Shown here: positions 197-14,581 of the stretch, piece after piece
Layout of the letters: each line of letters starts with the position of its first letter
How positions within the stretch are numbered: position 1 is the stretch's first letter
Assembly (NCBI RefSeq): GCF_001643775.1
Contig: NZ_CP011402.1
Location: 1,364,432-1,396,431 of the forward strand
DNA: 32,000 nt
Reading direction: 5' to 3'
Source of the DNA: Denitrobacterium detoxificans
GTDB lineage: Bacteria > Actinomycetota > Coriobacteriia > Coriobacteriales > Eggerthellaceae
Made by a program: the position numbers and the translations under genes
The notes under the pieces: model-generated
Told to the model about the DNA's origin: nothing
Database searches by the model: none
The model's input: the letters and a program-made list of their open reading frames with translations, nothing else

Positions 197-964
197 TTAG
201 AATAACCCACTCGTGAGCAGGAAGTTCAGGGACTTGAGGTTGAGCCCCATATGCTCGCGGAACCACTGGTGCGCGAAATGGAGCACGGCAAACGACGCCT
301 GAAGGGGAACGTGCGATTCGCGTACGTGGGCAAACGGTTGGCCCAGCAGCGTTTGCACCCACAGCAACGTGGTAGCCTCGATGCGCTGCGTCTGCACGTG
401 CGAACGGCAATCAACGCACACCGCTCCCCCTTCGACGAACGAAAAATCACGCCATGCACCATGCTCGAGCGGCACCTGTGCCCCGCACGATACGCACGTG
501 GACACGCGCGGGCGAAAGCCCAGCATGGCAAAGAGCTTCACCAGAAACGCAGCACAAATGGCGGGCGCATCGTCTTCCTGGCAGGAGCGTAGTTCGTCGA
601 GTGCAGCGCAGGCCATGTCAAACAGGCGCGGTACGGGAAGGTCGGGCTGGCCGCACTTGGCAAGTGCGTCGAGAATGGGAGAAGACGCAGCGTTGAACAG
701 CACGTCTTCGCGAAGGCGCGCATGGGCGTTCACGCAGCGCGCCTCGGTGACGATGGGAAGGCCCCTCCCCTTTGCAATGAGCACGTCGGCCAGGCAAAAG
801 TACTCCAGACGCGAAGCGAACGTGTTGCCCGGCTTGCGCGCGCCACGGGCAACGGCTTGCCCGAGCGAGCCATCTTCGTGCAAAAAGGCGATGATGAGGT
901 CGGTTTCCCGAAGCTTGGTCTTTCGAACGACCAGTACGCGGCAAGATTTCGTGGGCGTGGCCAC
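197..964 (-). CDS. recO: DNA repair protein RecO
   Basis: 255-aa ORF with RecO-like N-terminus and C-terminal zinc motif (CVSCG...CVDC). GTG start overlaps the era stop. Conserved era-recO order. Confidence 0.9.
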   Translation of the reverse strand: MATPTKSCRVLVVRKTKLRETDLIIAFLHEDGSLGQAVARGARKPGNTFASRLEYFCLADVLIAKGRGLPIVTEARCVNAHARLREDVLFNAASSPILDALAKCGQPDLPVPRLFDMACAALDELRSCQEDDAPAICAAFLVKLFAMLGFRPRVSTCVSCGAQVPLEHGAWRDFSFVEGGAVCVDCRSHVQTQRIEATTLLWVQTLLGQPFAHVRESHVPLQASFAVLHFAHQWFREHMGLNLKSLNFLLTSGLF

Positions 965-1872
965 TACATGCCTTCTCCGTAGCCGAAGCGCCTGATCTGA
1001 TTCAGGTCGCGACGCCAGTTCTTGCGCACCTTCACGCGCAGATCCAGGAAGACACGCGAGCCAAGCATCTGCTCCAGATCGGTGCGGGCTTCGCTGCCAA
1101 TGGCCTTCAGCGCGCGACCGCCCTTGCCGATGATGATGCCCTTCTGGCTATCGCGTTCCACGTAGATAAGCGCATAGATGCGCTCGAGGTTCTTGCGCTT
1201 GTCGTATTCCATTTCCTCGACGACGACGCCAATAGCGTGGGGCACCTCGTCGTGAAACGAACGAAGGATCTTCTCGCGAATGAATTCGGCGATGAGCACT
1301 TCCGTAGGCTGGTCGGTTTCCATGTCGGAGGGGAACCATTGCGGACCCGGCGGAAGCAGGTTCGCCGCCGTTTCCATAAAGGCCTCCACGCCGTCTCCGG
1401 TAACCGACGAAACCTCGAGCACGGCGTCCCATTCGGCCAGAGCCTGCGCGGCTTCGCGCTGCTTGGCGATGGTTTCGGCGTCGACCAGGTCAGTCTTGGT
1501 AATGACCAGGATCTTCTTTGCCTTCACTGCCGAAATCTGGCGGACGACCCATTCGTCGCCACGGCCCGCGGGCTTCGATGCGTCGAGCAGGAAGGCCACG
1601 GCGTCGATGCCGTCGAGCGCTTGGATGGCCGACTCGTTGAGCTCTTCGCCCAGCACGTCGTGCGGCTTGTGCAGGCCCGGCGTGTCCACCAGCACCAACT
1701 GGTAGTCGTCGCGCGTGACGACCGCACGGAAGCGGTGACGCGTGGTTTGCGCGGTGTCGCTGGTAATGGCAACTTTCTTGCCCATGATGGCATTGATGAG
1801 CGTGGATTTACCCGCGTTGGGGCGCCCGATGAGCGTGACGAACCCCGAGCGGAAGTCTTCGGAGAATTCCAT
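964..1872 (-). CDS. era: GTPase Era
   Basis: G1 motif GRPNAGKST, DTPG motif, KH-like C-terminus. I place the start at ATG 1872 (MEFSEDF), 2 nt after the dgkA stop. The ORF-track extension to 1920 would overlap dgkA. Confidence 0.93.
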   Translation of the reverse strand: MEFSEDFRSGFVTLIGRPNAGKSTLINAIMGKKVAITSDTAQTTRHRFRAVVTRDDYQLVLVDTPGLHKPHDVLGEELNESAIQALDGIDAVAFLLDASKPAGRGDEWVVRQISAVKAKKILVITKTDLVDAETIAKQREAAQALAEWDAVLEVSSVTGDGVEAFMETAANLLPPGPQWFPSDMETDQPTEVLIAEFIREKILRSFHDEVPHAIGVVVEEMEYDKRKNLERIYALIYVERDSQKGIIIGKGGRALKAIGSEARTDLEQMLGSRVFLDLRVKVRKNWRRDLNQIRRFGYGEGM

Positions 1873-1874
1873 GA

Positions 1875-2255
1875 TTACCATCCTAGAAGAGGAAGCACAT
1901 GCGGGATGAACACGATGCACCCCACAATGGCGGAAGTAAAAGCAAAAATGTAAACGGCGCCGGCAGCCATGTCCTTTGCGGCCTTGGCAACCGGATGAAG
2001 CTCTGGGCTAGCAAGGTCGACGGCATCTTCAATAGCGGAATTAAAGCACTCGCCGCCAACAACCAAGCCGCAGCAAATGAGCACGGCACACCATTCCCAC
2101 GGCGCCAAGGAGAATACAAACCCCAACACAATGACGAGAACGGCACCAGCCGTTTGGACGCGGATATTGAACCCTGTACGGTACGCTTCAAAAACGCCTT
2201 GAATGGCGTACTTGAACGACTTTACGAACGGGGTCTTGCCCGCGCCGGGTTTCAC
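1875..2255 (-). CDS. dgkA: Diacylglycerol/undecaprenol kinase family membrane protein
   Basis: 126-aa three-TM protein with a DgkA-like sequence (ECFNSAIEDAVD). GTG start overlaps the ybeY stop (GTGA). Confidence 0.85.
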   Translation of the reverse strand: MKPGAGKTPFVKSFKYAIQGVFEAYRTGFNIRVQTAGAVLVIVLGFVFSLAPWEWCAVLICCGLVVGGECFNSAIEDAVDLASPELHPVAKAAKDMAAGAVYIFAFTSAIVGCIVFIPHVLPLLGW

Positions 2256-2713
2256 GATTGGCCTCGCCAGGCAGCCAGAAGCTCACGCTCGCGGGCCTCC
2301 ATGACCTCTGCCTCTTCGTCGACGATGTGGTCGTAGCCGCATAGATGCAGGCAGCCGTGCGTAATGAGCAGCTCGAGCTCTTCTTGGAAGGTGGTGCCGT
2401 ATTCCTGCGTCTGACGCTTGCAGACATCAACCGCGATTACGATATCGCCCAGCTCGTACGGAGCGTCTTCGGGCGCGTCGGCATCGAACTCGTCATCGAG
2501 GTTGTCGCATTCGAAGCTCAGGACGTCGGTGGGACCCTGCTTTCCGCGATAACCTTCGTTCAGGCGGGTCATTTCCTCGTCATCGACGAAGCTGATGGAC
2601 ATTTCGGTGTTGGCCGGCTTGCCCTCGTGCGAGACGACGAATTCGGCGAGCTGCGCAATGGGCAGACTTTCGACGTCTTCTTTGCCGTAATCGTAATTGA
2701 CGGTGATTTCCAT
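2252..2713 (-). CDS. ybeY: rRNA maturation endoribonuclease YbeY
   Basis: HGxLHLxGYDH metal-binding motif (HGCLHLCGYDH). Start taken at ATG 2713 (MEITVNYDYG), preceded by GGAAGGA. Confidence 0.9.
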   Translation of the reverse strand: MEITVNYDYGKEDVESLPIAQLAEFVVSHEGKPANTEMSISFVDDEEMTRLNEGYRGKQGPTDVLSFECDNLDDEFDADAPEDAPYELGDIVIAVDVCKRQTQEYGTTFQEELELLITHGCLHLCGYDHIVDEEAEVMEARERELLAAWRGQS

Positions 2714-3033
2714 TCCTATCCTTCCCGAGGAGGACGCAACCACAGTAGCTGGAGGCCCTTCCCCGCAGACACGGGCTATGTTGTGTTTTGAGGTAATTAT
2801 ACGCGCTCGATTGAAAACGGGGCAGCTGGGGCAATGCCTGTCACCCTACGGACACAAGCGCGTTCGGCGCGTATAGGCGCTAAAAATGGCATTTGGGCAA
2901 AAATAGCCCGCCCGATGTAAAAAATTCAACGCTGTACAGGTAAATCGGCTACGAGCGGCAACGTAAATGACTTCACGAAATAACTGACCTGGGGAAACAC
3001 AGGATCAGAACTATAGAAACGATCGAAATATTG

Positions 3034-4599
3034 GGCTCTTCGGTGGTTTCTGTGGGAGAGATTCCGGCATAGGCCCAGCTCAGCGGGCGAAAACAACGAT
3101 CTGGAACTGAAACGGCCCCGGGAGGGGCCGTTTCCGCGTCATCCGCCTATGATTGCTAAGCCAAATTCAGACAACCGAAGAGGTGTGACGCATGAAGAGT
3201 CTACTACTTCTCGCCCTCGGTCTGGCCCGCACGGTCGTCCTGGGCGCGCGCATCGAGGCCGAGCGCATCGTCGTGAGCGTCCGGCCCTACAAGCGCGAGC
3301 AGCGCCGCTGCCCCGTATGCGGCAGGGCCTGCGACTTCTACGACATGGCGAACCGCGGGGCCCCCAGGCTGTGGAGGGCGATGGACCTGGCGCGCTCGGC
3401 CTGCTACCTGGAGTACGCGCCCTGCAGGGTGCGCTGCCCGGAGCACGGCGTGCGCACCGAGGCCGTCCCCTGGGCGCGGCACGGGGCGCGCTTCACGCGT
3501 GACTTCGAGGACTGGGTGGCGTGGCTGGCGGTCCGCTGCACCGCCTCGGCGGTCTCCGAGCTCGCCCGCGTCGAGTGGCACAGCGTGGGCGGCGTGTGCA
3601 GGCGCGTCTACGCCGAGCTGGAGGCCGCGCGCGGCGCCTCGAGGTTCGACGGCGTGCGCCGCATCGGCATCGACGAGACGTCGTACAAGAAGGGCCACAA
3701 GTACGTCACGGTGGTCGTCGACCACGACCGCGGCTGCCTCATCTGGGCGCACGAGGGCACCGGCAAGGACGTGCTCAACCTGTTCCTCGACGAGCTCACG
3801 CGCGAGCAGAGGCGCGCCATAGAGGTGGTGACCGCCGACGGCGCGAGGTGGATAAGGCAGCTGGTCAAGCGCCGCTGCCCCAACGCGAGGTGGGTCATGG
3901 ACCCCTTCCACGTGGTCCAGTGGATGAACGACGCGCTCGACGCCGTGCGCTGCGAGGAGTGGAACGCCGCCAGGGCCGCCGCCAGGGCCGCCAGGCCCAG
4001 GCCCGAGGGCAAGCGCGGCAGGCCTGCCAAAGGCGAGCTGCCGCCCGAGGAGGTCAGGGCGCTCGAGGAGGAGGCGGCCTCCATCAAGGGCAGCCGCTAC
4101 GCGCTCGTGAAGAACCCCGAGGACCTCACCGACGGCCAGAGGGCGAGGCTCGAGGCGCTCAAGAAGAGGGCCGGCTCGCGGCTGGTCAGGGCCTGGGAGC
4201 TCAAGGAGGACCTGCGGGCCGTCTTCCGGGCAGCCGACGGCTCCGAGGCCGCCGAGCTGCTCGACGACTGGATGCACAGGGCCGCCTACTGCAAGATCGC
4301 CAAGGTCGTCGCCGTGGAGAAGAAGGTGCGCCGCCGGCGCGACGACATCATCGCCGCAGTCGAGCTCGGCATCAGCAACGGGCGCGTAGAGGCCATCAAC
4401 AACAAGATCAAGGTGACGGTGAGGATGGGCTACGGCTTCCGCAACACCGACAACCTCGTGGCCCTGCTCATGCTCAGGTGCGGCGACTGCCAGCCCCAGC
4501 TCCCGGGTCGCCCGGTGAAGGCGAGGAAGAAGGGCGTGAAGGGAGCGAAGAGCGTTGCTGCCTAGGCTAGCCCCTTGTCACACAAACTACCGAAGCCTC
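3034..4599 (+). mobile_element. ISL3-family insertion sequence (1566 bp) with imperfect terminal inverted repeats and an 8-bp target-site duplication
   Basis: Left end is GGCTCTTCGGTGGTTTCTGTGGGAG; reverse complement of the right end is GAGGCTTCGGTAGTTTGTGTGACAAG (18/27 match). It is flanked by direct AAATATTG at 3026-3033 and 4600-4607. Contains a single ISL3 transposase ORF. Confidence 0.87.
3192..4565 (+). CDS. ISL3 family transposase
   Basis: 457-aa ORF with an N-terminal zinc-finger region (CPVCG...CPEHG) and an ISL3-type DDE core (GIDETSYKKGHKYVTVVVD...). Much more GC-rich than its surroundings. Confidence 0.92.
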   Translation: MKSLLLLALGLARTVVLGARIEAERIVVSVRPYKREQRRCPVCGRACDFYDMANRGAPRLWRAMDLARSACYLEYAPCRVRCPEHGVRTEAVPWARHGARFTRDFEDWVAWLAVRCTASAVSELARVEWHSVGGVCRRVYAELEAARGASRFDGVRRIGIDETSYKKGHKYVTVVVDHDRGCLIWAHEGTGKDVLNLFLDELTREQRRAIEVVTADGARWIRQLVKRRCPNARWVMDPFHVVQWMNDALDAVRCEEWNAARAAARAARPRPEGKRGRPAKGELPPEEVRALEEEAASIKGSRYALVKNPEDLTDGQRARLEALKKRAGSRLVRAWELKEDLRAVFRAADGSEAAELLDDWMHRAAYCKIAKVVAVEKKVRRRRDDIIAAVELGISNGRVEAINNKIKVTVRMGYGFRNTDNLVALLMLRCGDCQPQLPGRPVKARKKGVKGAKSVAA

Positions 4600-4756
4600 A
4601 AATATTGCTTCGATAGCAGCCGCAACCTGTACAGCATTGATTATTTGCATATGATCGTCCGGTTTTCGCCCAATGACCCCAATATGACACAAATCACAGT
4701 TCCTCATCAGTGCACGGCAAGTCATGTCCACATTGCTGCGGGCCCTGTCGTGAGTC

Positions 4757-4843
4757 AAATTTGGCACCTACGTGCCGCCCCAAGGGCTTTTTAGGCTTAG
4801 CCGTTATTTTGACTCGTAGTGTTGTCCTGACTGGTAATCAAAC
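4757..4843 (-). ncRNA. tracrRNA-like RNA (type II-A style): anti-repeat, nexus and two 3' hairpins
   Basis: Minus strand reads GTTTGATTACCAGTCAGGACAACACTACGAGTCAAAATAACGGCTAAGCCTAAAAAGCCCTTGGGGCGGCACGTAGGTGCCAAATTT. The first ~40 nt are complementary to the 36-nt array repeat: 19 contiguous pairs with repeat positions 18-36, a lower stem with positions 1-7, and a 2-nt bulge. GAGTCAAAATAACGGCTAAGCC parallels S. pyogenes AAGTTAAAATAAGGCTAGTCC. GGCACGTAGGTGCC parallels GGCACCGAGTCGGTGC. The 5' and 3' ends are not determined. Confidence 0.65.
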
Positions 4844-4863
4844 GGAAGTGGAGGCGTGAGCGC

Positions 4864-5103
4864 ATGCTGACGTATTCGAAAATAGCAACCATGGGTCATA
4901 CTGCGCTTTTCGAGTATTATCCCGAGGGCGATACCTCAAAACCAGGTGTTGTATCCTTCGATTTCGATAGCGGGGAATGCGAAATCACTTGCTTAGCGGA
5001 TGGCGACCGTCATTCGCGATACGCCAACCATCTCGCTAATGCCTTAGAAAGCCAGCATGCTGGCGATGGGGTCGTTCCGTCGGGTACGATAATGTGGTAT
5101 TAA
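4864..5103 (+). CDS. Hypothetical small acidic protein (79 aa)
   Basis: ATG preceded by GGAGG at 9-nt spacing. Followed by a GC hairpin (5125-5140). No family recognised. Confidence 0.55.
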   Translation: MLTYSKIATMGHTALFEYYPEGDTSKPGVVSFDFDSGECEITCLADGDRHSRYANHLANALESQHAGDGVVPSGTIMWY

Positions 5104-5152
5104 AATTTTTCGAACAGGCTATGAGCCGCCTATGGGCGGCCGGAATGGCCAT

Positions 5153-5225
5153 TGGCACGCCACTGAAGAGTCGAACCCGATACGCGGCTTTGGAGGCCGA
5201 CGCTCTTCCATTGAGCTAGTGGCGT
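5153..5225 (-). tRNA. tRNA-Trp(CCA)-like element, probably a pseudogene or fragment
   Basis: Minus strand is ACGCCAC TA GCTC AATGGAA GAGC G TCGGC CTCCAAA GCCGC GTA TCGGG TTCGACT CTTCA GTGGCGT G CCA. It has a perfect 7-bp acceptor, a good D-arm, anticodon loop CUCCAAA and T-loop TTCGACT. The variable loop is only 3 nt, and the T-stem has one C-C mismatch and two G-U pairs. Confidence 0.4.
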
Positions 5226-5322
5226 ATGGTATAAAGATTGCGAAGGGTTCCCCCTCGGTCTTGGACGGAGGCTGGAACCCTTTCTCTGTTCTCGCTTTAT
5301 TCGACGTATCACCCCATCCTCG

Positions 5323-5358
5323 GTTTTGGAGCAGCGTCATTCTGACTGGTAATCAAAC
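5323..5358 (+). repeat. Array repeat 1 (consensus)
   Basis: Exact 36-mer. Confidence 0.95.
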
Positions 5359-5427
5359 GTTATGCGCGTATTTGATATACTACGCATGGAAGCCCCCACG
5401 ATTTACAACTGAGTCGCCGGGGCTTCT

Positions 5428-5670
5428 TCATTTTCTGATCACGTCAATCAAGTTTCCACTCTTATCAAGAATGGTCACCCAATCGAACTCCGCCGCATAC
5501 TCTTCGTTTTTGATCAGACCACGAATGGCTGCGCACAAGTCGGAATCGGTTATATGCAGAGACTCGTAGTTGTCGATCACGAGCCTCTTCATTCCTTTCT
5601 TGCCGATGGACTTATCAAAGTAATTCTTGACGGCACCATGAGCGTTTCGCGACGTAAGCAGCGTTTTCAT
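5428..5670 (-). CDS. Hypothetical protein (80 aa from MKTLL) inside inter-repeat segment 1
   Basis: Open frame ending ...IDVIRK. The TGA stop is embedded in the terminator stem GAAGCCCC(21 nt)GGGGCTTC (5389-5425). SD is weak. The frame stays open up to a TTG inside repeat 2 (5754), but no SD is there. Confidence 0.4.
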   Translation of the reverse strand: MKTLLTSRNAHGAVKNYFDKSIGKKGMKRLVIDNYESLHITDSDLCAAIRGLIKNEEYAAEFDWVTILDKSGNLIDVIRK

Positions 5671-5720
5671 CTCAATACCATTCAGCAATCGGCCGTCTTG
5701 TCCCAAATTACGCGACCATC

Positions 5721-5756
5721 GTTTTGGAGCAGCGTCATTCTGACTGGTAATCAAAC
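5721..5756 (+). repeat. Array repeat 2 (consensus)
   Basis: Exact 36-mer. Confidence 0.95.
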
Positions 5757-5882
5757 AGATTCGGGAAAGAAAAAGCCAGTTAGGTGAACCCTCAACTTAA
5801 GCGGGCCGCTAACTGGCTTGCCAAAAATATAACATTTTGAGCAATCGAATGAAAGCTTTGCATTCTTCTTATGGAGGGCAAG

Positions 5883-6108
5883 ATGAAGGTTCCTAACCGC
5901 GTCAACATCCTGGGCATCCCGTATGATGTCGTCTCTGACGATATGGAGACAATGAGGATGGCTTTATCTCTCCTCGTAGGCAAGTCATCATGTTGCGCAA
6001 GGGGCTGCCCCGCGAGAAGCGCGAGCAGACGTATCTGCACGAGCTGGTTCATGGCATCTTGGATCAGCTTGACTACTTGGAGCTGTACGAGGACGAGCAC
6101 CTGGTGCA
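5883..6108 (+). pseudogene. HExxH metallopeptidase fragment (ImmA/IrrE-like), frameshifted and cut off at the repeat
   Basis: GGAGG-5 nt-ATG, then MKVPNRVNILGIPYDVVSDD. After a frame change near 5939-5945 it continues YGDNEDGFISPRRQVIMLRKGLPREKREQTYLHELVHGILDQL... (HELVH at 6038-6052). The reading frame runs straight into repeat 3 at 6109, with unrelated sequence beyond. Confidence 0.55.
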
Positions 6109-6144
6109 GTTTTGGAGCAGCGTCATTCTGACTGGTAATCAAAC
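6109..6144 (+). repeat. Array repeat 3 (consensus)
   Basis: Exact 36-mer. Confidence 0.95.
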
Positions 6145-6281
6145 CGCGCCATCGCGCAGCCATACCCCTGGCGCGCGTGGTAGTCCACCTCGTGCCCGCA
6201 TCGGTCGAGCCGCCATAGGCTCTCGGACGTGGCACGCTATATGCGCCCATCGAACGTGGGCACCTCGATGAAAATGCGCAT
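6145..6281 (-). pseudogene. Possible RelE/HigB-like toxin gene fragment with an in-frame stop, cut off at the repeat
   Basis: GAAGG-5 nt-ATG (6281), then MRIFIEVPTFDGRI, TAG (6237-6239), and continuing open frame to the edge of repeat 3. The N-terminus resembles the MRFIETPVF... class of RelE-like toxins. The family call is tentative. Confidence 0.3.
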
Positions 6282-6398
6282 AATCACCTTCTAATCTAAT
6301 GTAAGTGGCGCTATAATGATTTAGGCGGTACTTGCCCGGTCATGGACGGGGTGTAGGCCGCTATCTTTTTACTCTAAGCATGCCCCTCTGCTTATCAG

Positions 6399-6434
6399 GT
6401 TTTGGAGCAGTGTCATTCTGACTGGTAATCAAAC
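6399..6434 (+). repeat. Array repeat 4 (C13T variant)
   Basis: 35/36 identical (GCAGTGTC instead of GCAGCGTC). Confidence 0.95.
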
Positions 6435-6561
6435 ATGAGAATGCGCATGTTGCTCCCTTAGGCATGAAAAAGCGCCTATGAAGTCGCTAAATTGCTTGAT
6501 ACATAAACTCTGTTTGATATAATTTATTCGAAGCCCGACGCGGCAACGCAGCGTCAGGGCT

Positions 6562-6888
6562 TCATTTGTTTTCCCATCTTGTAACGCTGCCGTCCTTTAA
6601 GGCAAAAAGGATTTCTTGAACATTCGAGTAATCAGACTCAGGATCACTCAACGATTCCTCAAAGTGTTTCAAGAATCGCTTGTCATTCATAGCGCTATCA
6701 AGATTGCTCAGAACAATCCTTAATCTGCTTTCCGCCTTTCGAAACTTTGTATCTGCTTTTGCTATATTGCCAGCAACCGCCAAATAGCCATTTCCATCAG
6801 GGCATTTTGCTTCCCAGAGTACACCGACAGCTCCTATAGCATAATCAAACTTCGGTTTTGGAGCAGTGTCATTCTGACTGCTAATCAA
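6562..6888 (-). CDS. Hypothetical protein (108 aa) whose first 11 codons lie in terminal repeat 5
   Basis: TTG start at 6886-6888 inside the repeat, preceded by a strong SD (GAGGAGGG, 6892-6899). Ends ...TRWENK, with its TGA embedded in the terminator GAAGCCCGACGC(6 nt)GCGTCAGGGCTTC (6530-6563). It may instead be a 5'-truncated fragment. Confidence 0.4.
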   Translation of the reverse strand: MISSQNDTAPKPKFDYAIGAVGVLWEAKCPDGNGYLAVAGNIAKADTKFRKAESRLRIVLSNLDSAMNDKRFLKHFEESLSDPESDYSNVQEILFALKDGSVTRWENK

Positions 6889-6890
6889 AT
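6855..6890 (+). repeat. Array repeat 5, degenerate terminal repeat
   Basis: 33/36 identical (C13T, G27C, C36T). Decay at the 3' end is as expected for a leader-distal terminal repeat. Confidence 0.9.
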
Positions 6891-6949
6891 ACCCTCCTCG
6901 ACCTTACATACGCACTTCCCTACGGAAAGACCCTGGGCGCTGAAGCCCG

Positions 6950-7225
6950 TCATGTGGGGCGATATGGCCTAACGCCAAAGTCAACCTCGATGATGCGCCC
7001 GCAATATCTGGGCTTGGCGGGAGCAGGAATCGGACCGGGCTCGCGCTGCCCCATCTCGGCAGCCTTCGGAGCAATCACCGTCTGGAACCAGCCGCAACAT
7101 CCGCAGTGCCACACTGCCCCATCCCACGTAAGTTCCAACGGCCTAAGCTCGAGGCGGTGCCCACATCTGGGACACATGTGCGGCTGTCTCGATATCGCCT
7201 TGAAATAGGGGCTCAGCTCCAGCAT
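6950..7225 (-). CDS. Zinc-ribbon protein (91 aa)
   Basis: ATG at 7225 preceded by GGGAGGTG. Has CPRCG...CGCCG cysteine pairs. The ORF-track version (to 7483) lacks an SD at its start. Confidence 0.55.
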   Translation of the reverse strand: MLELSPYFKAISRQPHMCPRCGHRLELRPLELTWDGAVWHCGCCGWFQTVIAPKAAEMGQREPGPIPAPAKPRYCGRIIEVDFGVRPYRPT

Positions 7226-7633
7226 ACGCCCACCTCCCACTCGTTTGATTGTCAGCCAAAATGACTCCGTTGAATACAAATGGCCCGAATCGTCAATATC
7301 GAAAGCCGCCCTTACTTCTGCATCTTCAGAAGGTCCTTCAGGATCATTAACGGAGTCGCAAGAATAAGCAGAATCGCATACCCTGCAAAGGAAGGGTCGC
7401 CCGACCCACCAAAAAAGACATTCCCTTTGCCAAGCCTTCGTTTGCGTGAACGATTCAAACCAAAAGATGGTCGTTATGAGCATCGTAGCCCAGACAACTC
7501 ATTCACGCGTCCATCATGTAGGACACGCAAACAGCCAAATGCAAATACACTTTTCATCAGGAAGGATGCAATTTCAAACGAAGGGCAATGGCCCTAGCAC
7601 TGCCGCGCAACGAGGAACGGGAGGGAAACGATA

Positions 7634-7699
7634 ATGGCAATATTCGCACTACTTACTGCGCCAGCAATGATCATCTCGGTGTTTGCGTTATGCGCCTAG
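7634..7699 (+). CDS. Candidate 21-aa hydrophobic micropeptide (MAIFALLTAPAMIISVFALCA)
   Basis: Not in the ORF track (too short). ATG preceded by GGGAGGG at 8-nt spacing. Composition fits a single TM helix. Confidence 0.3.
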   Translation: MAIFALLTAPAMIISVFALCA

Positions 7700-7756
7700 C
7701 AGAACTCATGGGTCGAGCCAACCAACCCAGGAAGCAAACCCCACGTCAATAGCGTA

Positions 7757-7785
7757 TTGACACCTCAACCATCGCATTATATTCT
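7757..7785 (+). promoter_or_regulatory. Candidate sigma-70-type promoter (TTGACA-17 nt-TATTCT)
   Basis: Consensus -35 at 7757-7762 and a -10-like hexamer at 7780-7785, about 50 nt upstream of the membrane-protein gene. Confidence 0.35.
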
Positions 7786-7836
7786 AATCATGTGTTTTTT
7801 GCGTTTATTTGGGGTACAAGGAAGGTAGGTAGCGAA

Positions 7837-8280
7837 ATGGAACGCAGTGGAAGTCAGAAGGTGTTGTTGGTACTGTCCATCATCGAGATTATAGGCGCCG
7901 CGTTGTCCCTTATTACGGGCATCCTGTTCTTCGTAGGTGCAGGCGCGGTGCTATCCGATGCAAGCGTCGTCGCGGGAACAGGCGCCACTCAGGGCCAAGC
8001 AGCCGGTATTTTCGTAATCCTATCGTGTATTCTCATTGTCGAGGGTATCTGGAGCCTCCTGTGCGGCATCTTCGGCGTTCGCGCCGCCAACGATAACCAG
8101 AAGATCATGATCGTTTGGGTCTTCTGCCTCATTGGCGTGATCATGGCAATCATTGGCATCATCGCAGCCATCGTAAACGGCCAGTTCGGCAGCCAAGTTT
8201 GGTCGCTCGTTTGCTCGCTGGCAGTCTCGGGCATCATGTTCTTCATCGCCAACAACATCAAGAAGGAAGCCGGCAAGTAA
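7837..8280 (+). CDS. Hypothetical integral membrane protein (147 aa, about 4 TM helices)
   Basis: ATG at 7837 preceded by GGAAGGTAGG. Four long hydrophobic segments. Followed by a hairpin plus T-run. Confidence 0.75.
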   Translation: MERSGSQKVLLVLSIIEIIGAALSLITGILFFVGAGAVLSDASVVAGTGATQGQAAGIFVILSCILIVEGIWSLLCGIFGVRAANDNQKIMIVWVFCLIGVIMAIIGIIAAIVNGQFGSQVWSLVCSLAVSGIMFFIANNIKKEAGK

Positions 8281-8305
8281 GACTAACCACTTACACAGGC
8301 ATCAT

Positions 8306-8360
8306 CCAGCACCCTGCCTTCGTCGAATCCGACAGCCAGAAGGGAGGGTGCTGGTTTTTA
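8306..8360 (+). terminator. Intrinsic terminator-like hairpin
   Basis: CCAGCACCCT (8306-8315) pairs with AGGGTGCTGG (8345-8354), followed by TTTTTAT. The loop is long (29 nt). Confidence 0.5.
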
Positions 8361-8398
8361 TCACCCACACTAGGGCAAACAAGTCGAAAGGATGACCC

Positions 8399-9079
8399 AT
8401 GAATTACGAGATCGTTGGAGAACCGTATCCGGCAGTCGTATGCCATCTGCAGCGCGGAGAGCAAATGAAAACTGAAAAGGGCTCCATGGTGTGGATGGAC
8501 CCCGTCATGAAGATGGAAACCAACACCGGGGGTGGAGGAATCGGCAAGATGTTCGGACGCATGCTATCAGGTGAGAGCATGTTCCAAAACGTCTACACGG
8601 CGGAAAGCGACGGTATGATCGCGTTCGGATCGAGCTTCCCCGGCCAGATCCTTCCCATCGAGATTCAACCTGGTCAGGATTTCATCGCGCAGAAGATGGC
8701 GTTTCTGGCATCCGAGATGGGCGTAACGCTCGACACGTTCTTCAACCAGAAGCTCAGTGGCGGCTTCTTCGGCGGCGAAGGCTTCATCATGCAGCGCCTG
8801 AGCGGCCAGGGCATGGTATTCCTCGAGTGCGACGGATCGCTCGTTCGCTACGAGCTTGCCGCCGGCCAATCCATGGTAGTCGACACGGGCAACGTACTCG
8901 GATTCACGGGCGGCGTAAATCTACGCGTAGAGAGAATTCAAGGCGCAAAGAACGTCATGTTCGGCGGCGAAGGCCTCTTCAACACGGTGCTCACCGGCCC
9001 GGGCACGGTCTACCTGCAAACGATGCCGCTCGCCAACCTCGTCGACGTGATTGCGGCCCATATGCCTAAGACAGACTAA
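8399..9079 (+). CDS. TIGR00266/AIM24 (DUF124) family protein
   Basis: 226 aa with the characteristic family sequence (MNYEI.G..Y..v...L..GE....E.GSMVWMD...GGFFGGEGF..Q.L.G.G.VFL...G). Confidence 0.9.
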   Translation: MNYEIVGEPYPAVVCHLQRGEQMKTEKGSMVWMDPVMKMETNTGGGGIGKMFGRMLSGESMFQNVYTAESDGMIAFGSSFPGQILPIEIQPGQDFIAQKMAFLASEMGVTLDTFFNQKLSGGFFGGEGFIMQRLSGQGMVFLECDGSLVRYELAAGQSMVVDTGNVLGFTGGVNLRVERIQGAKNVMFGGEGLFNTVLTGPGTVYLQTMPLANLVDVIAAHMPKTD

Positions 9080-9153
9080 ATCGAAGCGCTCTGAACAAGC
9101 GTAGACAAGCATTATCACGCAACGCGAGCACGAAACTCGCCCAAACAAGCAGG

Positions 9154-9196
9154 GCCAGCTAGCAACCAAGCATCGTAAGGGGTTCGGCTAGCTGGC
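9154..9196. terminator. Hairpin between convergent genes
   Basis: GCCAGCTAGC (9154-9163) pairs with GCTAGCTGGC (9187-9196), followed by TTTGTTCTG. Lies between the TIGR00266 gene and the radical SAM gene. Confidence 0.4.
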
Positions 9197-9210
9197 TTTG
9201 TTCTGCCCGC

Positions 9211-10041
9211 CTATACATTACCCAATAGGACCGTATGCAAGTGACGCTCGGCTACGCTGGCCAGCTCATGCAGCGTAGCGATGGGCGTAGGAGGCACATC
9301 ACTCATACGGTGCTGCGGGAAGAAACGCGTAAGATGGTACGGGATGGCGGGGTCGAGCGATGCAAGCCACTGCGCCATTTCCTCTATCTGTTCTGCATCA
9401 TCGGAAAGCCCAGGCACTACGAGCGTAGTTACCTCCAGATGGCACGTAGGCAATGCGGCCAGCAACTCAATCGTACGCTTCACCGTACCCAAATCGCCAC
9501 TGAGCTTGCGGTAACCCTCCGCAGTAAAGCATTTCAAGTCGATGTTGGCAGCATCCACGAAGGGGGCAATCTGCTCCACCACCTGCTCGCTCGCGAACCC
9601 ATTGGAAACGAGTACGTTCACCAATCCCGCTTCGTGCGCCAACGCGGCCGTATCGCGCAGGAACTCCCACGTCACAAGCGGCTCGTTATACGTGTACGCA
9701 ACACCAACGCACCCGCGATCGCGCAGGCCGCACGCAGCGTGCACAACCTCTTCGGGCGTTACCTCGCGCCAAGGCACCCCAGTCGCATCCACTTGCGCAA
9801 TCGAGGCGTTCTGGCAAAACGGGCAATGCATGTTGCAGCCGTAGCTGCCCAGGGAAAGCACGGTACTCCCCTGTTTCCAGTGGGCAATCGGCTTCTTCTC
9901 GATAGGGTCGAGCGCCAGCGACGTAATGCGCCCGTACCCTTCGGGCGCCACCACGCCATCGATGCAGCGACGAGAACGACATGCCCCCAGCGCACCCTCG
10001 GCAAGGGAACACGCATGGGGGCATGTCGAGCATATTGTCAC
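9211..10041 (-). CDS. AmmeMemoRadiSam system radical SAM enzyme (AmrS-like)
   Basis: 276 aa. N-terminal Cys cluster (CSTCPHAC...GAC), DPIEKKP motif, and radical SAM CNMHCPFCQN (CxxxCxxC). Confidence 0.85.
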   Translation of the reverse strand: MTICSTCPHACSLAEGALGACRSRRCIDGVVAPEGYGRITSLALDPIEKKPIAHWKQGSTVLSLGSYGCNMHCPFCQNASIAQVDATGVPWREVTPEEVVHAACGLRDRGCVGVAYTYNEPLVTWEFLRDTAALAHEAGLVNVLVSNGFASEQVVEQIAPFVDAANIDLKCFTAEGYRKLSGDLGTVKRTIELLAALPTCHLEVTTLVVPGLSDDAEQIEEMAQWLASLDPAIPYHLTRFFPQHRMSDVPPTPIATLHELASVAERHLHTVLLGNV

Positions 10042-10047
10042 GGCTAG

Positions 10048-11727
10048 TTAGTCACGCGTGAGCTTACGATGCAGGCGATGCGGCTTGGCGGCTTCGGGCC
10101 CCAAGCGACGAACACGGTCTTCCTGGTAGCCTTCGAAGTTGCCCTCGTACCAGTACCATGCACCCGGATTCTCGTCGGTACCTTCCCAAGCCAGAATATG
10201 CGTGGCAACACGGTCGAGGAAGAAGCGGTCGTGGCTGGTGATGACAGCGCAGCCGCTGAACTCGTTCAGCGCCTCTTCCAGGCTGGAAAGCGATTCGGTG
10301 TCCAGGTCGTTCGTGGGCTCGTCGAGCAGCAGCAGGTTGCCGCCCTGCTTCAAGGTAAGAGCCAGGTTCAAGCGGTTGCGCTCGCCACCGGAAAGCACGC
10401 CTGCGGGCTTCTGCTGGTCGCTGCCCTTGAAGCCATACGCCGCCACATATGCGCGCGAAGGCACCTCGGTGCCAGCTACGTTCATGTAGTCCAGACCATC
10501 CGACACGACTTCCCAGACCTTCTTATTGGGATCGATGCCGGCACGGTTCTGATCGACATAGGAAAGCTGAACGGTAGAGCCCAGCTCGAGCGTGCCGCTC
10601 GTGGGAGCCTCCTCGCCCACGATCATGCGGAAGAGCGTCGTCTTGCCCACGCCATTCGGGCCGATGACGCCCACGATGCCATTGCGCGGCAGGCTGAACG
10701 ACAGGTCATCGATGAGCACGCGGTCGCCGAATTCCTTGTGCAGATGCTCGGCTTCCAGCACCTTGTTGCCCAAGCGCGGACCAGCAGGAATGTGAATCTC
10801 GGTGAAGTCGACATTCTTGCGCGCAGCGGATTCGGCCACCATCTTCTCGTAGGCCGCCAAACGCGCCTTGCCCTTGGCCTGACGGGCCTTCGCGCCACTG
10901 CGCACCCATTCCAGCTCGGCCTTCATCTTCTTGGCGCGCTTCTTGTCCTGTGCACCCTCGAGCTCCAAACGCGCAGCCTTGGTTTCCAGATACGTGGAGT
11001 AATTGCCCTTGTAGGGATACAGCGTGCCGCGGTCGACCTCGCAAATCCACTCGGCTACATGGTCGAGGAAGTAACGGTCGTGCGTGACGGCCAAGACGGC
11101 ACCGGGATACTTCGCCAGGAACTGTTCGAGCCACAGAACCGATTCGGCATCCAGGTGGTTGGTGGGTTCGTCGAGCAGAAGCAGGTCGGGAGATTCCAGC
11201 AGCAAGCGGCACAGGGCCACGCGACGACGCTCGCCACCCGAAAGCACCTTCACAGGAGCGTCGGGGTCGGGGCACTGCAGCGCATCCATAGCCTGCGAAA
11301 GCTGCGAATCCAGATCCCAACCATTAACGGCATCGATGGCGTCCTGAAGCTTGCCCATTTCCGCCATGAGCGCATCGAAATCGGCATCGGGCATGGCCAT
11401 TTCCGCCGAAATCTCGTTGAAGCGCGCCACATTGGCAAGCGTTTCGGCAAAGGCCTGCTCGACGTTCTCGCGAACTGTCTTGTCATCATCGAGCGCGGGA
11501 TCCTGCTGAAGCAGACCCACGGTGTAGCCAGGCGTAAGGCGTGCCTCGCCGTTGCTGACCTCTTCCAGGCCCGCCATGATCTTCAGCAGCGTGGACTTGC
11601 CCATGCCGTTCGGACCAACGACGCCAATCTTCGCGCCAGGATAGAACGCAAGCGTAACGTCGTCCAAGATGACCTTGTCGCCATGCGCCTTGCGCGCCTT
11701 TTCCAGCGTGTAAATGAATTCAGCCAC
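10048..11727 (-). CDS. ettA: ABC-F ATPase, energy-dependent translational throttle EttA
   Basis: Two ABC cassettes (GPNGMGKST, GPNGVGKTT, two LSGGE signatures). EttA-type N-terminus (M)AEFIYTLEKARKAHG from GTG at 11725-11727, preceded by GGAGG-5 nt. The 823-aa ORF-track version is an upstream run-on. Confidence 0.93.
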   Translation of the reverse strand: MAEFIYTLEKARKAHGDKVILDDVTLAFYPGAKIGVVGPNGMGKSTLLKIMAGLEEVSNGEARLTPGYTVGLLQQDPALDDDKTVRENVEQAFAETLANVARFNEISAEMAMPDADFDALMAEMGKLQDAIDAVNGWDLDSQLSQAMDALQCPDPDAPVKVLSGGERRRVALCRLLLESPDLLLLDEPTNHLDAESVLWLEQFLAKYPGAVLAVTHDRYFLDHVAEWICEVDRGTLYPYKGNYSTYLETKAARLELEGAQDKKRAKKMKAELEWVRSGAKARQAKGKARLAAYEKMVAESAARKNVDFTEIHIPAGPRLGNKVLEAEHLHKEFGDRVLIDDLSFSLPRNGIVGVIGPNGVGKTTLFRMIVGEEAPTSGTLELGSTVQLSYVDQNRAGIDPNKKVWEVVSDGLDYMNVAGTEVPSRAYVAAYGFKGSDQQKPAGVLSGGERNRLNLALTLKQGGNLLLLDEPTNDLDTESLSSLEEALNEFSGCAVITSHDRFFLDRVATHILAWEGTDENPGAWYWYEGNFEGYQEDRVRRLGPEAAKPHRLHRKLTRD

Positions 11728-11814
11728 GAAAACCTCCGTGCTAATAGAGCGGTATTGCGTTAATTTGTTTATTGTACAAGACGAATGTCGAATTCGCTTG
11801 AAACGGAGGCGCTT

Positions 11815-13236
11815 ATGTCGATCGTTGGAGCAATTGTCGTACCGCATCCGCCACTTATCGTTCCCGCCGTTGGGCGCGGCGAGGAGCAACGCATCGGCGA
11901 AACCATTGACGCATATAAGCGCGCAACAAAATGGCTGCTCAGCCAGCAGCCCGATTGCCTGGTTATCACCTCGCCGCACGCGCCGCTGTTTCGCGACGCG
12001 TTTCACGTAACCACCGATGACGTCCTCGAGGGAAGCATGGCCCAATTCCGCGCGCCGCAAGAGCACATGAGCGCGGAATGCAATACCGAACTGGCGCGAG
12101 AAATCATCAGCAGGGCAAACGATGCAGGAATCCCAGCCATTGGCAGCGAGCGCTATCGCGACGACATGGATCACGCCACCTACGTGCCGCTCTACTTCGT
12201 GCGCGAAGCCGCCGGCGGCATGCTTCCCTGCCCCATCGTTCGCATTGGGCTTTCCGGCATGCCGTACGACACGCACCGCCAATTGGGGCGCATCATCGCA
12301 CAAGCGGCAAGCGCGCAGGGCATCAAAGTAGGATTCATTGCCAGCGGAGACCTTTCGCACAAGCTGAAACCCGACGGTCCCTATGGTTTCGCACTCGAAG
12401 GCCCTGTATTCGACGAGCGCATTGGCGAGATATTCGCATCGGGTAACCTCGATGGCCTCTTCGAGCTCGACGAGGCATTCTGCGAAGCTGCCGCCGAATG
12501 CGGACTCCGATCGTTCCAAATCATGGCGGGCGCCCTAGACGGCCTGAGCGTGCATACGGAATTGCTCTCGAACGAAGGGCCGTTTGGCGTAGGCTACGGA
12601 GTAGCCATCTGCAAATGCGAAAGCACGACAAATTGCGACGCCCATGCAGGTAAACGCGATGCGGACAACGACCACCTTCACAGTGCCAATCCGCCCACCG
12701 AGGCCGACCCAATCGTACGCCTTGCGCGCCTAACGGTCGAAACGTTCACGCGCACGGGCCGCGCGCCCAATCTACCTGACGATCTGCCGCAAGAGCTCCT
12801 GGAACGGAAGGCGGGCGTATTCGTAACGATTCACAAGCGGGGCGCTTTACGCGGCTGCATAGGCACCATCTCACCCACATGCAGCAACATTGCGGAGGAA
12901 GTCATACAGAACGGGATTAGCTCCAGCAGTCGTGACCCACGCTTCCCAGCCATACGCGAGGAGGAACTCGATTACCTGGAGTATTCGGTCGACGTATTGG
13001 GCGAAGCAGAGCCCATCGACTCGCCCGAACAGCTTGACCCGAAGCGCTACGGCGTCATCGTTGCGAAACGTTGGCAACGCGGGCTACTGCTCCCGAACCT
13101 CGAGGGCGTAGAGACGATTGAGTCTCAGGTCTCGATCGCCAAGCAAAAAGCGGGCATAGACCCAGCAGACAACGACGTTGAACTTGCGCGCTTCGAAGTC
13201 GTGCGCCATTCCGCCGGCGGAGAGGCACGCAGATAA
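11815..13236 (+). CDS. Fusion protein: class III extradiol dioxygenase/Memo-like (LigB superfamily) domain plus AMMECR1 domain (AmmeMemoRadiSam system protein A-like)
   Basis: ATG at 11815 preceded by GGAGG-5 nt. N-terminal half has VPHPPLIVP...GDLSH (LigB/Memo-like). C-terminal half has the AMMECR1 signature ...GALRGCIGT...RDPRFP. Confidence 0.85.
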   Translation: MSIVGAIVVPHPPLIVPAVGRGEEQRIGETIDAYKRATKWLLSQQPDCLVITSPHAPLFRDAFHVTTDDVLEGSMAQFRAPQEHMSAECNTELAREIISRANDAGIPAIGSERYRDDMDHATYVPLYFVREAAGGMLPCPIVRIGLSGMPYDTHRQLGRIIAQAASAQGIKVGFIASGDLSHKLKPDGPYGFALEGPVFDERIGEIFASGNLDGLFELDEAFCEAAAECGLRSFQIMAGALDGLSVHTELLSNEGPFGVGYGVAICKCESTTNCDAHAGKRDADNDHLHSANPPTEADPIVRLARLTVETFTRTGRAPNLPDDLPQELLERKAGVFVTIHKRGALRGCIGTISPTCSNIAEEVIQNGISSSSRDPRFPAIREEELDYLEYSVDVLGEAEPIDSPEQLDPKRYGVIVAKRWQRGLLLPNLEGVETIESQVSIAKQKAGIDPADNDVELARFEVVRHSAGGEARR

Positions 13237-13450
13237 TTCGACGCACCAGACATCATCGCCGAACGCATCCACGCGCAACACACGTACGTCCACTACCACG
13301 CACCGTTCGCGGGTTGAAAGGCTAACGAGCGAAACGAAACGCTACCAATCGAGCCCAACGAGAAGCTATAATCCAGCACTAGAGAGGCGCGGAACGGACG
13401 CGCGCAATGCCCGGAGGCGCAAGCCTTCGAAAACGAGGGAGGCGGTCGCA

Positions 13451-13648
13451 ATGTGCTTTAGGCCATCACCTGTATCCAGCTCAAACGACAACATCAACCA
13501 GGGAACATGCCCTACATGCGGAATGCCCGTCGCCGCAGAAGCGGGCACCACAAGCGGAACGTGCCCCTATTGCGGAGAACCCATTCCCCCCAATGATTCC
13601 GGCCAGGGCGGAATTTCCGATGATCCGAAGAACGTGCGCATCTTGTAG
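13451..13648 (+). CDS. Small zinc-ribbon protein (65 aa)
   Basis: GGGAGG-8 nt-ATG. Has CPTCG...CPYCG. A TATAAT hexamer sits at 13364-13369. The gene is followed by the terminator that the IS3 element split. Confidence 0.4.
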   Translation: MCFRPSPVSSSNDNINQGTCPTCGMPVAAEAGTTSGTCPYCGEPIPPNDSGQGGISDDPKNVRIL

Positions 13649-13723
13649 CCGTTCGACACGCAGCGAAAGGGCAGCCAGGGACGATGAACTGCGCCCCAAA
13701 ACTTGGACGCGATAAATAAGAAC

Positions 13724-14581
13724 CTAGGCGGCTTGGGACTGGCTCCGGAACTCCTCCGGGGTCAGTCCCTTTAGTTTAACTTGCCTCCTCTGCGTGTTCC
13801 AGTACTCGATGTATCCCTCAAGCTCCCTCTTGAACGTCTCGAAGTCGGGGAACTTTCTGCCTCGGAAGAACTCGTCTTTCAAATGGCCGAACACCTGCTC
13901 GGTCGCGCCGTTGTCGATGCAGTTGCCCTTACGTGACATGCTCTGCACGATGCCTGCCTCCTCGAGCCTTCCGCAATACCCTATGTGCTGGTACTGCCAG
14001 CCCATGTCCGACTGCATGACCGGGTGAGCACCGTCCGGAATCTTCGGGATGAGCATGTCGAGCATCTCCTTCTGCTGCGACATGTCCGGGTGCTGGGATA
14101 TGGACCACGCCGCGATCTCCTTGCTGCCGAAGTCGTAGACGGGCGCGAAGTACGCCTTGCCCCATTCCTGCTTGAACTCGGTGACGTCGGTGCCAAGCTT
14201 CTGCCACGGCCCATCTGCCTCGAAGTCGCGCCCCAGCACGTTCTCGAAGGTCTTGCCGACCACGCCCTTGTAGGAATTGTACTTGTGGTAGTCCGTCTCC
14301 CGGCGTATGCCGCAGCTTATTCCTATCTCGTGCATCATCTTGAGCACGGTCTTGTCGGCGATCGTCGCCCCTTCCTCGGCGCGCAGGCACATGGCTATCT
14401 GGCGATGGCCGCAGCCGTTTGGCGAGCGCGAGAAGATCTCGATCGCCTTGCCCCAAAGCTCCGGCCTGGTCGGCGCCTTGGCCGGCTTCGACTTGTTGTA
14501 GTGGTAAGTCGATGCTGGAACGCCCGACACGGCCAGTAGGTCCGCAAGCGCGTGCCCCTGCCCCGAAAGCTCCCTGATCAC
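13724..14581 (-). CDS. IS3 family transposase OrfB (DDE integrase core), expressed as an OrfAB fusion by -1 frameshifting
   Basis: 285-aa rve-type catalytic domain (...WQKLGTDVTEF...SDMGWQY...GNCIDNGATE). The orfB frame is open upstream to the A7 slippery run. Confidence 0.9.
   Translation of the reverse strand: MIRELSGQGHALADLLAVSGVPASTYHYNKSKPAKAPTRPELWGKAIEIFSRSPNGCGHRQIAMCLRAEEGATIADKTVLKMMHEIGISCGIRRETDYHKYNSYKGVVGKTFENVLGRDFEADGPWQKLGTDVTEFKQEWGKAYFAPVYDFGSKEIAAWSISQHPDMSQQKEMLDMLIPKIPDGAHPVMQSDMGWQYQHIGYCGRLEEAGIVQSMSRKGNCIDNGATEQVFGHLKDEFFRGRKFPDFETFKRELEGYIEYWNTQRRQVKLKGLTPEEFRSQSQAA

Follow-up and report, generated by a model that had tools for sequence, protein, structure and literature searches.

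An orphan type II-A CRISPR array with gene-sized inter-repeat segments in Denitrobacterium detoxificans, and long units of the same repeat family in the Coriobacteriia

The repeat array, its neighbouring tracrRNA gene and the segments between repeats

A stretch of 32,000 nucleotides from the chromosome of Denitrobacterium detoxificans (contig NZ_CP011402.1, positions 1,364,432 to 1,396,431; the whole stretch is called the window below, and positions are counted from its first letter) holds a CRISPR locus in which the repeats are kept apart by segments as long as small genes. Five copies of a 36-nt repeat, GTTTTGGAGCAGCGTCATTCTGACTGGTAATCAAAC, lie on the + strand and together span 5323-6890; no match to it arose in 100 shuffles of the sequence. 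The first three copies are exact (5323-5358, 5721-5756 and 6109-6144), the fourth (6399-6434) has one mismatch and equals the commonest repeat variant in relatives, and the last (6855-6890) is a degenerate terminal repeat with three mismatches, beyond which lies a conserved chromosomal flank. The gaps between them measure 362, 352, 254 and 420 bp, about ten times the normal spacer length, and both the five direct copies and these lengths are as the initial annotation had given them. A sixth, repeat-like copy at 4808-4843, only 69% identical, is the anti-repeat of a gene for trans-activating CRISPR RNA (tracrRNA). The wider anti-repeat interval at 4806-4843 (+ strand reading ATTTTGACTCGTAGTGTTGTCCTGACTGGTAATCAAAC), which is presumed to be a recombination junction, directly abuts a further segment of 479 bp that extends to the first repeat. 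The G+C content of the CRISPR locus is ∼50%, against ∼60% for the window.

The locus is chromosomal, lying between ybeY-era-recO and AIM24, and this synteny is kept in Eggerthellaceae RUI283 (L012), whose DNA is 87% identical over the terminal repeat and flank, and in L013, a conspecific D. detoxificans contig (L-numbers label the loci and contigs compared in the analysis). An NCBI isolate assembly matches the window at 100% identity over 9.7 kb, and the structure was also found, whole or in part, in two Logan read assemblies and two metagenome contigs from ENA. Since it recurs in independent assemblies, the locus is no assembly chimera, a finding that the initial annotation had named as one that would refute it.

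The five long segments, numbered along the + strand, differ in content. Segment 1 (4844-5322, 479 bp) has a 79-aa open reading frame (ORF) at 4864-5103 on the + strand and a tRNA-Trp(CCA) gene at 5153-5225 on the minus strand, the sole Rfam result (38.3 bits). It recurs in a third strain (L101) at 97% identity and is absent from L013, so the unit with its tRNA-Trp is dispensable. Segment 2 (5359-5720, 362 bp), which L013 shares at 98.8% identity, holds an 86-aa ORF on the minus strand (5428-5688). In segment 3 (5757-6108, 352 bp), likewise shared with L013, a frameshifted ORF with the HExxH-type motif HELVH runs into the next repeat, and can be read from this motif alone as a fragment of an ImmA/IrrE-like metalloprotease. 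Segment 4 (6145-6398, 254 bp) is absent from L013. Segment 5 (6435-6854, 420 bp), common to L013, L015 and L016, contains a minus-strand ORF that runs into the flanking repeat, suggesting an N-terminally truncated gene. None of the small ORFs of the window belongs significantly to a Pfam or PHROGs family, and an exact-protein look-up of the 86-aa and 79-aa products returned matches only in other copies of the same array. The terminators and promoter-like sequence that the initial annotation had given to the segments are at best faintly indicated: 4500-7300 contains four promoter-like sites, against 2.8 in shuffled sequence, and one terminator-like site against 2.7.

Strains of D. detoxificans differ by whole repeat-segment units, as the comparison called for by the initial annotation brought out: the 254-bp and 479-bp units are missing from L013, which in turn carries four others. 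Such differences are explicable by loss from an ancestral array of larger size, and gain after the loss of the cas genes could also have contributed. A 1000-bp array unit of L013 (5171-6170) encloses a complete GrpB gene (188 aa, Pfam E = 1.7e-44); whole genes can therefore lie between repeats.

The tracrRNA gene occupies ∼4745-4843 on the minus strand, its 3' limit being approximate. Read in reverse complement, it consists of the 5' anti-repeat GTTTGATTACCAGTCAGGACAACACTACGAGTCAAAAT, a nexus-like hairpin GGCTAAGCC and two GC-rich 3' hairpins. The duplex between anti-repeat and repeat has a predicted energy of -35.6 kcal/mol, compared with -12.2 +/- 3.1 for shuffled repeats. The sequence is 81% identical to L008 3581-3677 and has homologues in other Coriobacteriia; at eight loci (L025, L029, L041, L044, L057, L069, L078 and L082) these lie ∼6.1 kb upstream of the array and directly before cas9. 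An alignment of 12 sequences shows that both 3' hairpins keep their pairing through compensatory changes. Compensatory pairs in the nexus hairpin (GGC..GCC, GAC..GTC, GGT..ACC) were seen by eye, and the consensus fold did not call this hairpin; an Rfam search gave no tracrRNA match at the gathering threshold. Because its homologues precede cas9 and its hairpins covary, the minus-strand RNA is identified, from its sequence, as a tracrRNA, and the tracrRNA-like gene of the initial annotation is thereby borne out. In canonical loci the anti-repeat lies only 28-40 nt from the cas9 start, and the promoter of the window tracrRNA may have been lost as well.

A separate feature of these RNAs is that their tail, TTTGACTC behind the last hairpin, complements GAGTCAAA, the part of the anti-repeat expected to pair with the 5' end of the repeat. 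The complementarity is present in 12/12 tracrRNA homologues (alignment A1, columns 39-46 and 101-108; window ∼4751-4760 and 4805-4813), and the pairing could form an autoinhibitory or alternative fold.

Type II-A relatives and the loss of the cas operon

The initial annotation had seen no cas9, cas1, cas2 or csn2 in the 32 kb. A tblastn search of the window with the Cas9, Cas1, Cas2 and Csn2 proteins of a cognate locus agrees, giving nothing significant (best E = 0.026). The ten large ORFs tested at 197-14581 are housekeeping and insertion sequence (IS) genes by Pfam, and those beyond 14.6 kb were screened by tblastn only. When one genome per species was scanned, the repeat proved confined to the Coriobacteriia, in the Atopobiaceae, Eggerthellaceae and Coriobacteriaceae, and a metagenome scan added 77 further loci. 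It is in these relatives that the cas9 operon and the normal arrays sought by the initial annotation are found. In Lancefieldella rimae ATCC 49626, an array with this repeat follows cas1-cas2-csn2. The order in L025 is tracrRNA (minus strand), Cas9 (1376 aa), Cas1, Cas2, Csn2 and array, with all four proteins confirmed by Pfam and with Cas9_REC, PI, HNH and RuvC domains in Cas9; L057 has the same order. Beside these csn2 and cas operons, the repeat is identical to that of the window or differs by one mismatch. Because the same repeat and tracrRNA flank complete cas9-cas1-cas2-csn2 operons elsewhere in the Coriobacteriia, the window locus truly belongs to type II-A but is now devoid of cas genes, which it has lost, and the type II-A character first assigned to the repeat is upheld.

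Compared with canonical type II-A systems (Streptococcus pyogenes; here L025, L057 and Lancefieldella rimae), the window shares the repeat, tracrRNA family, degenerate terminal repeat and orientation. The canonical relatives have 30-bp spacers and a 3' NAAR protospacer-adjacent motif (PAM), whereas the window has no cas genes, no leader, a tracrRNA fused to the array via a hybrid repeat, and spacers of 254-479 bp. No Cas9 of D. detoxificans appears among the best 120 relatives of the cognate Cas9, a result that is suggestive only, and as long as a Cas9 is lacking, the locus is in all likelihood inert. If Cas9 were supplied, the potential for guides would be limited to the last ∼20 nt of those segments inserted with the PAM side to the right. 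The four candidate 20-mers put forward earlier are correctly placed as the last 20 nt before each repeat. The accompanying idea that only these ∼20 nt could guide agrees with published work, in which longer spacers still give immunity, as Cas9 protects only ∼20 nt (PMC8034620), but it has to be qualified, since the long segments of relatives are inserted in either orientation and only about half would yield a guide with a PAM at its target.

The way in which the cas operon disappeared in relatives can be followed at the junction between tracrRNA and array. In array orientation, the canonical anti-repeat of L057 reads ...GTCCTGACTGGTAATCGGGACATAG..., its native continuation is GGTAATCGGGACATAG, and the cas9 ATG follows 40 nt later. 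Cas-less relatives with tracrRNAs 95-99% identical read ...GTCCTGACTGGTAATCAAAC instead, with the continuation GGTAATCAAAC and an array unit directly after it. The partner unit at this junction varies: it is a 2.2-kb unit in L008, L039, L091 and L093, a 30-bp spacer in L090, and other units in L038, L062 and L074. Since the repeat 3' end, AATCAAAC, follows the anti-repeat in place of the native sequence, these cas-less junctions are hybrids produced by recombination between anti-repeat and array repeat within their shared CTGACTGGTAATC. Deletion of the cas9-csn2 operon, together with the leader and the start of the array, has, on the same sequence comparison, occurred several times independently in the relatives, with a different array unit at the junction in each event.

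The window has the cas-less form of the junction (...GTCCTGACTGGTAATCAAAC|GGAAGTGG...), its anti-repeat likewise terminating in AATCAAAC, and by analogy it probably carries the same kind of hybrid. L013, with flanks ∼96% identical and also without cas genes, has a different crossover, TTTGACTCGCAGTGTCATTCTGACTGGCAATCAAAC. In the proposed first step, recombination between the anti-repeat and an array repeat, which lie in direct orientation ∼6 kb apart and share CTGACTGGTAATC, would delete cas9-cas1-cas2-csn2 together with the leader and those array units closest to it, and would leave the tracrRNA fused via a hybrid repeat to an array unit. The deletion might have proceeded through microhomology or through a phage integrase using the same core, which makes a phage a candidate driver. 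The shared recombination core CTGACTGGTAATC also overlaps the attachment (att) core of a phage described below.

Orphan arrays that have collapsed by repeat-repeat recombination resemble the window in being cas-less, in whole-unit differences between strains and in a degenerate terminal repeat. They differ in two respects: the endpoint of the window deletion is the tracrRNA anti-repeat and not an array repeat, which is why the whole cas operon was removed, and the surviving units are all long. The view of the locus as a decaying array, one of three offered by the initial annotation, proves correct.

Long segments across the repeat family and their sources

Large segments are family-wide and not peculiar to the window. 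Gap lengths in the family are bimodal: 540 of 672 gaps measure 28-32 bp, a single one falls at 33-100 bp, and 130 exceed 100 bp, with a range of 164-4893 bp and most at 250-1400 bp. The series in L. rimae (30, 29, 30, 1106, 30, 1216, 532, 30, 1087, 753, 606, 597) illustrates how long units stand among wholly normal ones. The 130 long gaps comprise 71 distinct sequences with G+C contents of 0.33-0.65 and no common termini; the first and last 8 nt hold no end motif beyond a mild A-richness on the left and T/C-richness on the right. Slightly different repeat variants with more long units were also met by chance (L119, L120). Literature searches, incomplete in coverage, found no description of such long spacers or of a cas deletion between anti-repeat and repeat, matching the earlier impression that no array class with this layout had been described.

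Most of the long segments are arbitrary gene fragments, chiefly from phages, that break off where a repeat begins. They include a minor head protein fragment covering profile positions 212-525 of 564, a terminase large subunit cut at both ends, an internal piece of a tape-measure gene and an N-terminal ParB-like piece that is truncated at either edge of its segment, the last with only distant viral relatives (40-51% identity) that are useless for mapping its boundaries. At least one long segment is host-derived, from a source ∼1 kb away from the array (L062 versus L006).

This content bears on the suggestion that the locus is an integron-like, functional gene-cassette platform collecting tRNA-Trp, GrpB and small ORFs. 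Complete genes do occur in some units, namely the tRNA-Trp of the window and the GrpB of L013, and whole units are gained or lost. The segments are, however, mostly truncated gene fragments in either orientation, with promoter and terminator signals at the level of chance; no integrase or other recombinase is present at the locus, inspection of the repeat by eye showed no attC-like recombination site able to form a hairpin, and the repeats are ordinary CRISPR repeats elsewhere. Capture of this kind, the first alternative in the initial annotation, is thus very improbable.

Different arrays took up the same phage regions in independent events, the ends being staggered and both orientations represented. 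The captures in L026 and L036 have 135 bp in common at 100% identity in opposite orientation, and those in L051 and L040 have 303 bp in common at 99% with staggered ends. A scaffold-gene region was captured three times, and the lysis/RHH end region of a prophage at least four times. Exact 24-26-mers from two hot source regions had no match in IMG/VR. Beyond the segment ends, the source or an overlapping capture continues without a repeat in every case. Two segments from different arrays, L084_611_895 and L049_3369_3882, are exactly adjacent in a phage tape-measure gene (coordinates 1999/2000 of L121/L122), which suggests that they arose from a single break point in related phages.

The absence of repeats at the source bears directly on another explanation, in which the array recombines homologously with repeats that phages or plasmids carry as mini-arrays, solitary repeat units or RNA anti-CRISPRs, and thereby takes up the mobile-element DNA lying between them. 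A single 36-bp repeat suffices for recombination with incoming DNA in Neisseria (PMC12477760), and arrays of the present family clearly rearrange through their repeats. Nevertheless, source DNA past the segment ends lacks the repeat in every mapped case, none was found in the prophage loci L110-L115, the window locus itself is chromosomal, and the only matches of viral contigs to the repeat are prophage-array junctions. Although the initial annotation had listed it, recombination with phage-borne repeats is an improbable source of the long segments.

Those prophage-array junctions point to a second process acting on the same repeats. The viral contig L001/L070 (L001 14470-14625) has a tyrosine integrase gene at the phage end, and beyond it lie the attR ...TCTGATTATGACTGGTAATCAAAC, a spacer of 30 bp, one full repeat and then a host gene; in L002 (∼1095-1140, minus strand) and L083, this attR stands before the 606-bp segment in an array of the L. 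rimae type. On this sequence evidence, one phage family uses the 3' core of the repeat as its bacterial attachment site (attB). Normal spacers target this phage, and the 597-bp terminase segment of L. rimae arrays shows 91% identity to the terminase gene of the phage. The S. pyogenes phage phiAP1.1 (bioRxiv 10.1101/2020.10.09.333658) sets a precedent: it too integrates into type II-A repeats, and by integrating and excising across different repeats it can delete units.

Insertion of temperate phages or of other elements with an attachment site in the CRISPR repeat, followed by decay into long segments, would at first sight fit the use of two different repeats by this tyrosine-integrase family, its targeting by normal spacers and the terminase fragment in an array. 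Phage integration, however, leaves a full repeat on one side and a core of 16-17 nt on the other, as in L001/L070 and L002/L083, whereas the long segments have full repeats on both sides. The segments are also internal pieces (terminase, tape measure) from far away from the att site, and their staggered, overlapping ends in both orientations are unlike the products of a fixed phage attachment site (attP). In the window there is no prophage at the array, no integrase in the segments, and full repeats flank both sides. The phiAP1.1 mode explains whole prophages and deletions and not repeat-flanked internal gene fragments. Phage integration is a separate process on the same repeats which, leaving a partial repeat on one side, cannot give fragments flanked by full repeats, and decayed insertions are an unlikely origin for the long segments.

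The ends of the segments were compared with the PAM of normal spacers, NAAR, which stands 3' of 7/9 of their protospacers. Among long-segment ends with a known source flank, NAA occurs in 9/23 (with one or two more ambiguous cases), six being NAAR and three CAAT or CAAC; the NAA background of ∼8% is an estimate from base composition, whereas the NAAR background of 5% was measured. Of the segments for which both source flanks could be clearly placed, four have an NAA end on one side only, without exception, and a fifth is ambiguous. The PAM-like end lies on the left in L084_199 and the 597-bp terminase segment, and on the right in the 514-bp tape-measure segment and L076. A rule placing the PAM only at the right end, as in normal spacers, was rejected by 0/6 in the first sample, and the opposite rule, with the PAM confined to the left, failed on L055_1804, the tape-measure fragment and L076. 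This small and partly post hoc sample points to segments with one end selected by a PAM, the other untrimmed, and an orientation that is not controlled.

A PAM at either end speaks against one further route. Spacers are known to recombine with their protospacers, and a double crossover between two neighbouring spacers and their protospacers, replacing spacer-repeat-spacer with the phage interval, would give phage DNA flanked by full repeats. This model predicts that a PAM always lies in the right flank and that a second one occurs within the segment, at positions 31-34, yet left-end PAMs, in reverse orientation, are about equally common. A search by position inside the segments, relevant to this model and to Cas9-cut models, showed no clear enrichment (position 31, 6/68 against ∼3.4 expected), and host-derived segments would stay unexplained. 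Such a double crossover therefore seems to be a poor prospect.

Proposed origin and survival of the long segments

The best explanation of the locus, and one regarded as rather probable, combines loss of the cas genes by recombination, uptake of oversized spacers by Cas1-Cas2 and differential loss of units. Following the recombination step outlined above as the route of cas loss, the second step concerns acquisition. The adaptation machinery of the still intact system would pick DNA next to a PAM (NAAR) and fail to trim the PAM-distal side to 30 bp; Cas1-Cas2 would then integrate the whole fragment at a repeat in either orientation, duplicating the repeat. Full repeats on both sides are the product of staggered Cas1-Cas2 integration and gap repair. 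Both ends of the duplex must reach the two sides of one 36-bp repeat, and stiff short DNA would be unable to loop back; the empty length range of ∼33-160 bp may be accounted for in this way, since DNA below about one persistence length cannot loop back.

Biochemical work makes such an event conceivable. In S. pyogenes, type II-A Cas1-Cas2 alone carries out full-site integration of longer, unprocessed prespacers with no orientation preference, and trimming to 30 bp requires the Cas9-Csn2-Cas1-Cas2 supercomplex (Jakhanwal et al. 2021, PMC8034620). The products resemble the long segments of the repeat family in that over-length DNA stands full-site between duplicated repeats, with the PAM side at either end. 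They differ in that short synthetic substrates were used in vitro and only 30-31 bp spacers were seen in vivo (PMC8034620), whereas the inserts described here measure 0.2-2 kb and make up about one-fifth of gaps. Casposons offer a looser parallel: they share a Cas1-family integrase, long DNA and target duplication, but they are self-mobilising and, unlike the segments, possess their own cas1 and terminal inverted repeats.

The third step is survival. Two repeats with a spacing of 66 bp undergo slippage or recombination far more often than two that are separated by hundreds of bp. Units of 30 bp would accordingly be lost faster by repeat-repeat slippage or recombination than long ones, and long units would come to predominate at old array ends and in cas-less arrays, where new spacers can no longer be acquired. 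Among arrays of 10 units or more, 31/47 long units lie in the trailer third and 3/47 in the leader third. In L028, spacers of 30 bp still separate long units that stand side by side in L. rimae. Arrays linked to cas genes are mostly made up of short units (with no long unit in L025, L029, L044 and L082), and cas-less arrays are mostly or wholly made up of long ones (the window, L013, L008/L005). Repeat-repeat recombination is known to collapse arrays (PMC12477760). Differential loss in a dead, winnowed array is the simplest reading of a window array that has only long units.

Several points weigh against this account. To our knowledge, no experiment shows Cas1-Cas2 inserting DNA of 0.2-2 kb. 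The published in vitro substrates are only somewhat longer than 30 bp (PMC8034620). The PAM statistic comprises 23 ends, the sources are 83-100% identical, both ends and orientations were considered post hoc, and several motifs are NAAT or NAAC. For the segments of the window itself no source was found: blastn in 'distant' mode matched 4844-6854 to none of 50,697 phage records or 72,556 plasmids, so that their mechanism is extrapolated by analogy from relatives. Nor was a cas-bearing relative of D. detoxificans found at this site, and the hybrid junction, too, is argued by analogy. The enrichment towards the trailer could instead come from another insertion route or from an early phase of the array. 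Some long gaps are explained otherwise: one of 1378 bp (L026 3044-4421) is a complete IS3-family element, and one of 2569 bp (L074 9346-11914) is host DNA between two arrays. Long stretches in L078 hold degenerate repeats.

The novelty lies in spacers of kilobase scale, associated with a PAM, that occur across the repeat family, and the window is a decaying orphan array that preserves them in pure form. A broader proposition is that the type II-A machinery of the Coriobacteriia natively writes kilobase DNA into arrays, with one PAM end, the other untrimmed and the orientation random, and that these units outlive both the spacers and the cas genes; this is an evenly balanced conjecture. If it holds, the type II-A integrase performs full-site integration of long DNA in vivo, with about one-fifth of units being phage or host fragments of 0.2-2 kb, and the arrays represent a Cas1-Cas2 route for capturing gene-sized DNA (tRNA, GrpB, toxin-antitoxin pairs). 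Spacer length is usually treated as fixed by a ruler for each CRISPR type, and array finders drop or split arrays with long gaps; a natural repeat family of this kind would alter that view. The observations bear on how prespacers are measured and oriented, on the entry of gene-sized DNA into chromosomes, and on writing or recording with Cas1-Cas2. Anti-repeat deletion and phage attachment at the repeat would be ways in which Cas9 systems are lost, testable in the cultivable Lancefieldella rimae ATCC 49626.

Near the locus in the window, Pfam identifies recO, era and ybeY, besides an ISL3 insertion sequence, AIM24, and genes for a radical-SAM protein and an ABC ATPase. The ISL3-family element (3035-4599, + strand; Pfam DDE_Tnp_ISL3) adjoins the 3' end of the tracrRNA gene. 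Its target duplication is AAATATT, and L013 shows the empty site, the insertion being restricted to the strain of the window. The element was considered as the cause of cas loss and rejected, as L013, which has no IS there, is also without cas genes. An IS3-family element lies at 13724-15081, 7 kb downstream; DNA 74% identical to it stands beside the single remaining repeat of L012 (4002-4721). About 350 bp downstream of the array, at 7242-7265, an inverted, degenerate partial repeat, CGTTTGATTGTCAGCCAAAATGAC, is 83% complementary to the 3' part of the repeat, and the 578-bp stretch that contains it (7114-7691) is missing from the syntenic L012.

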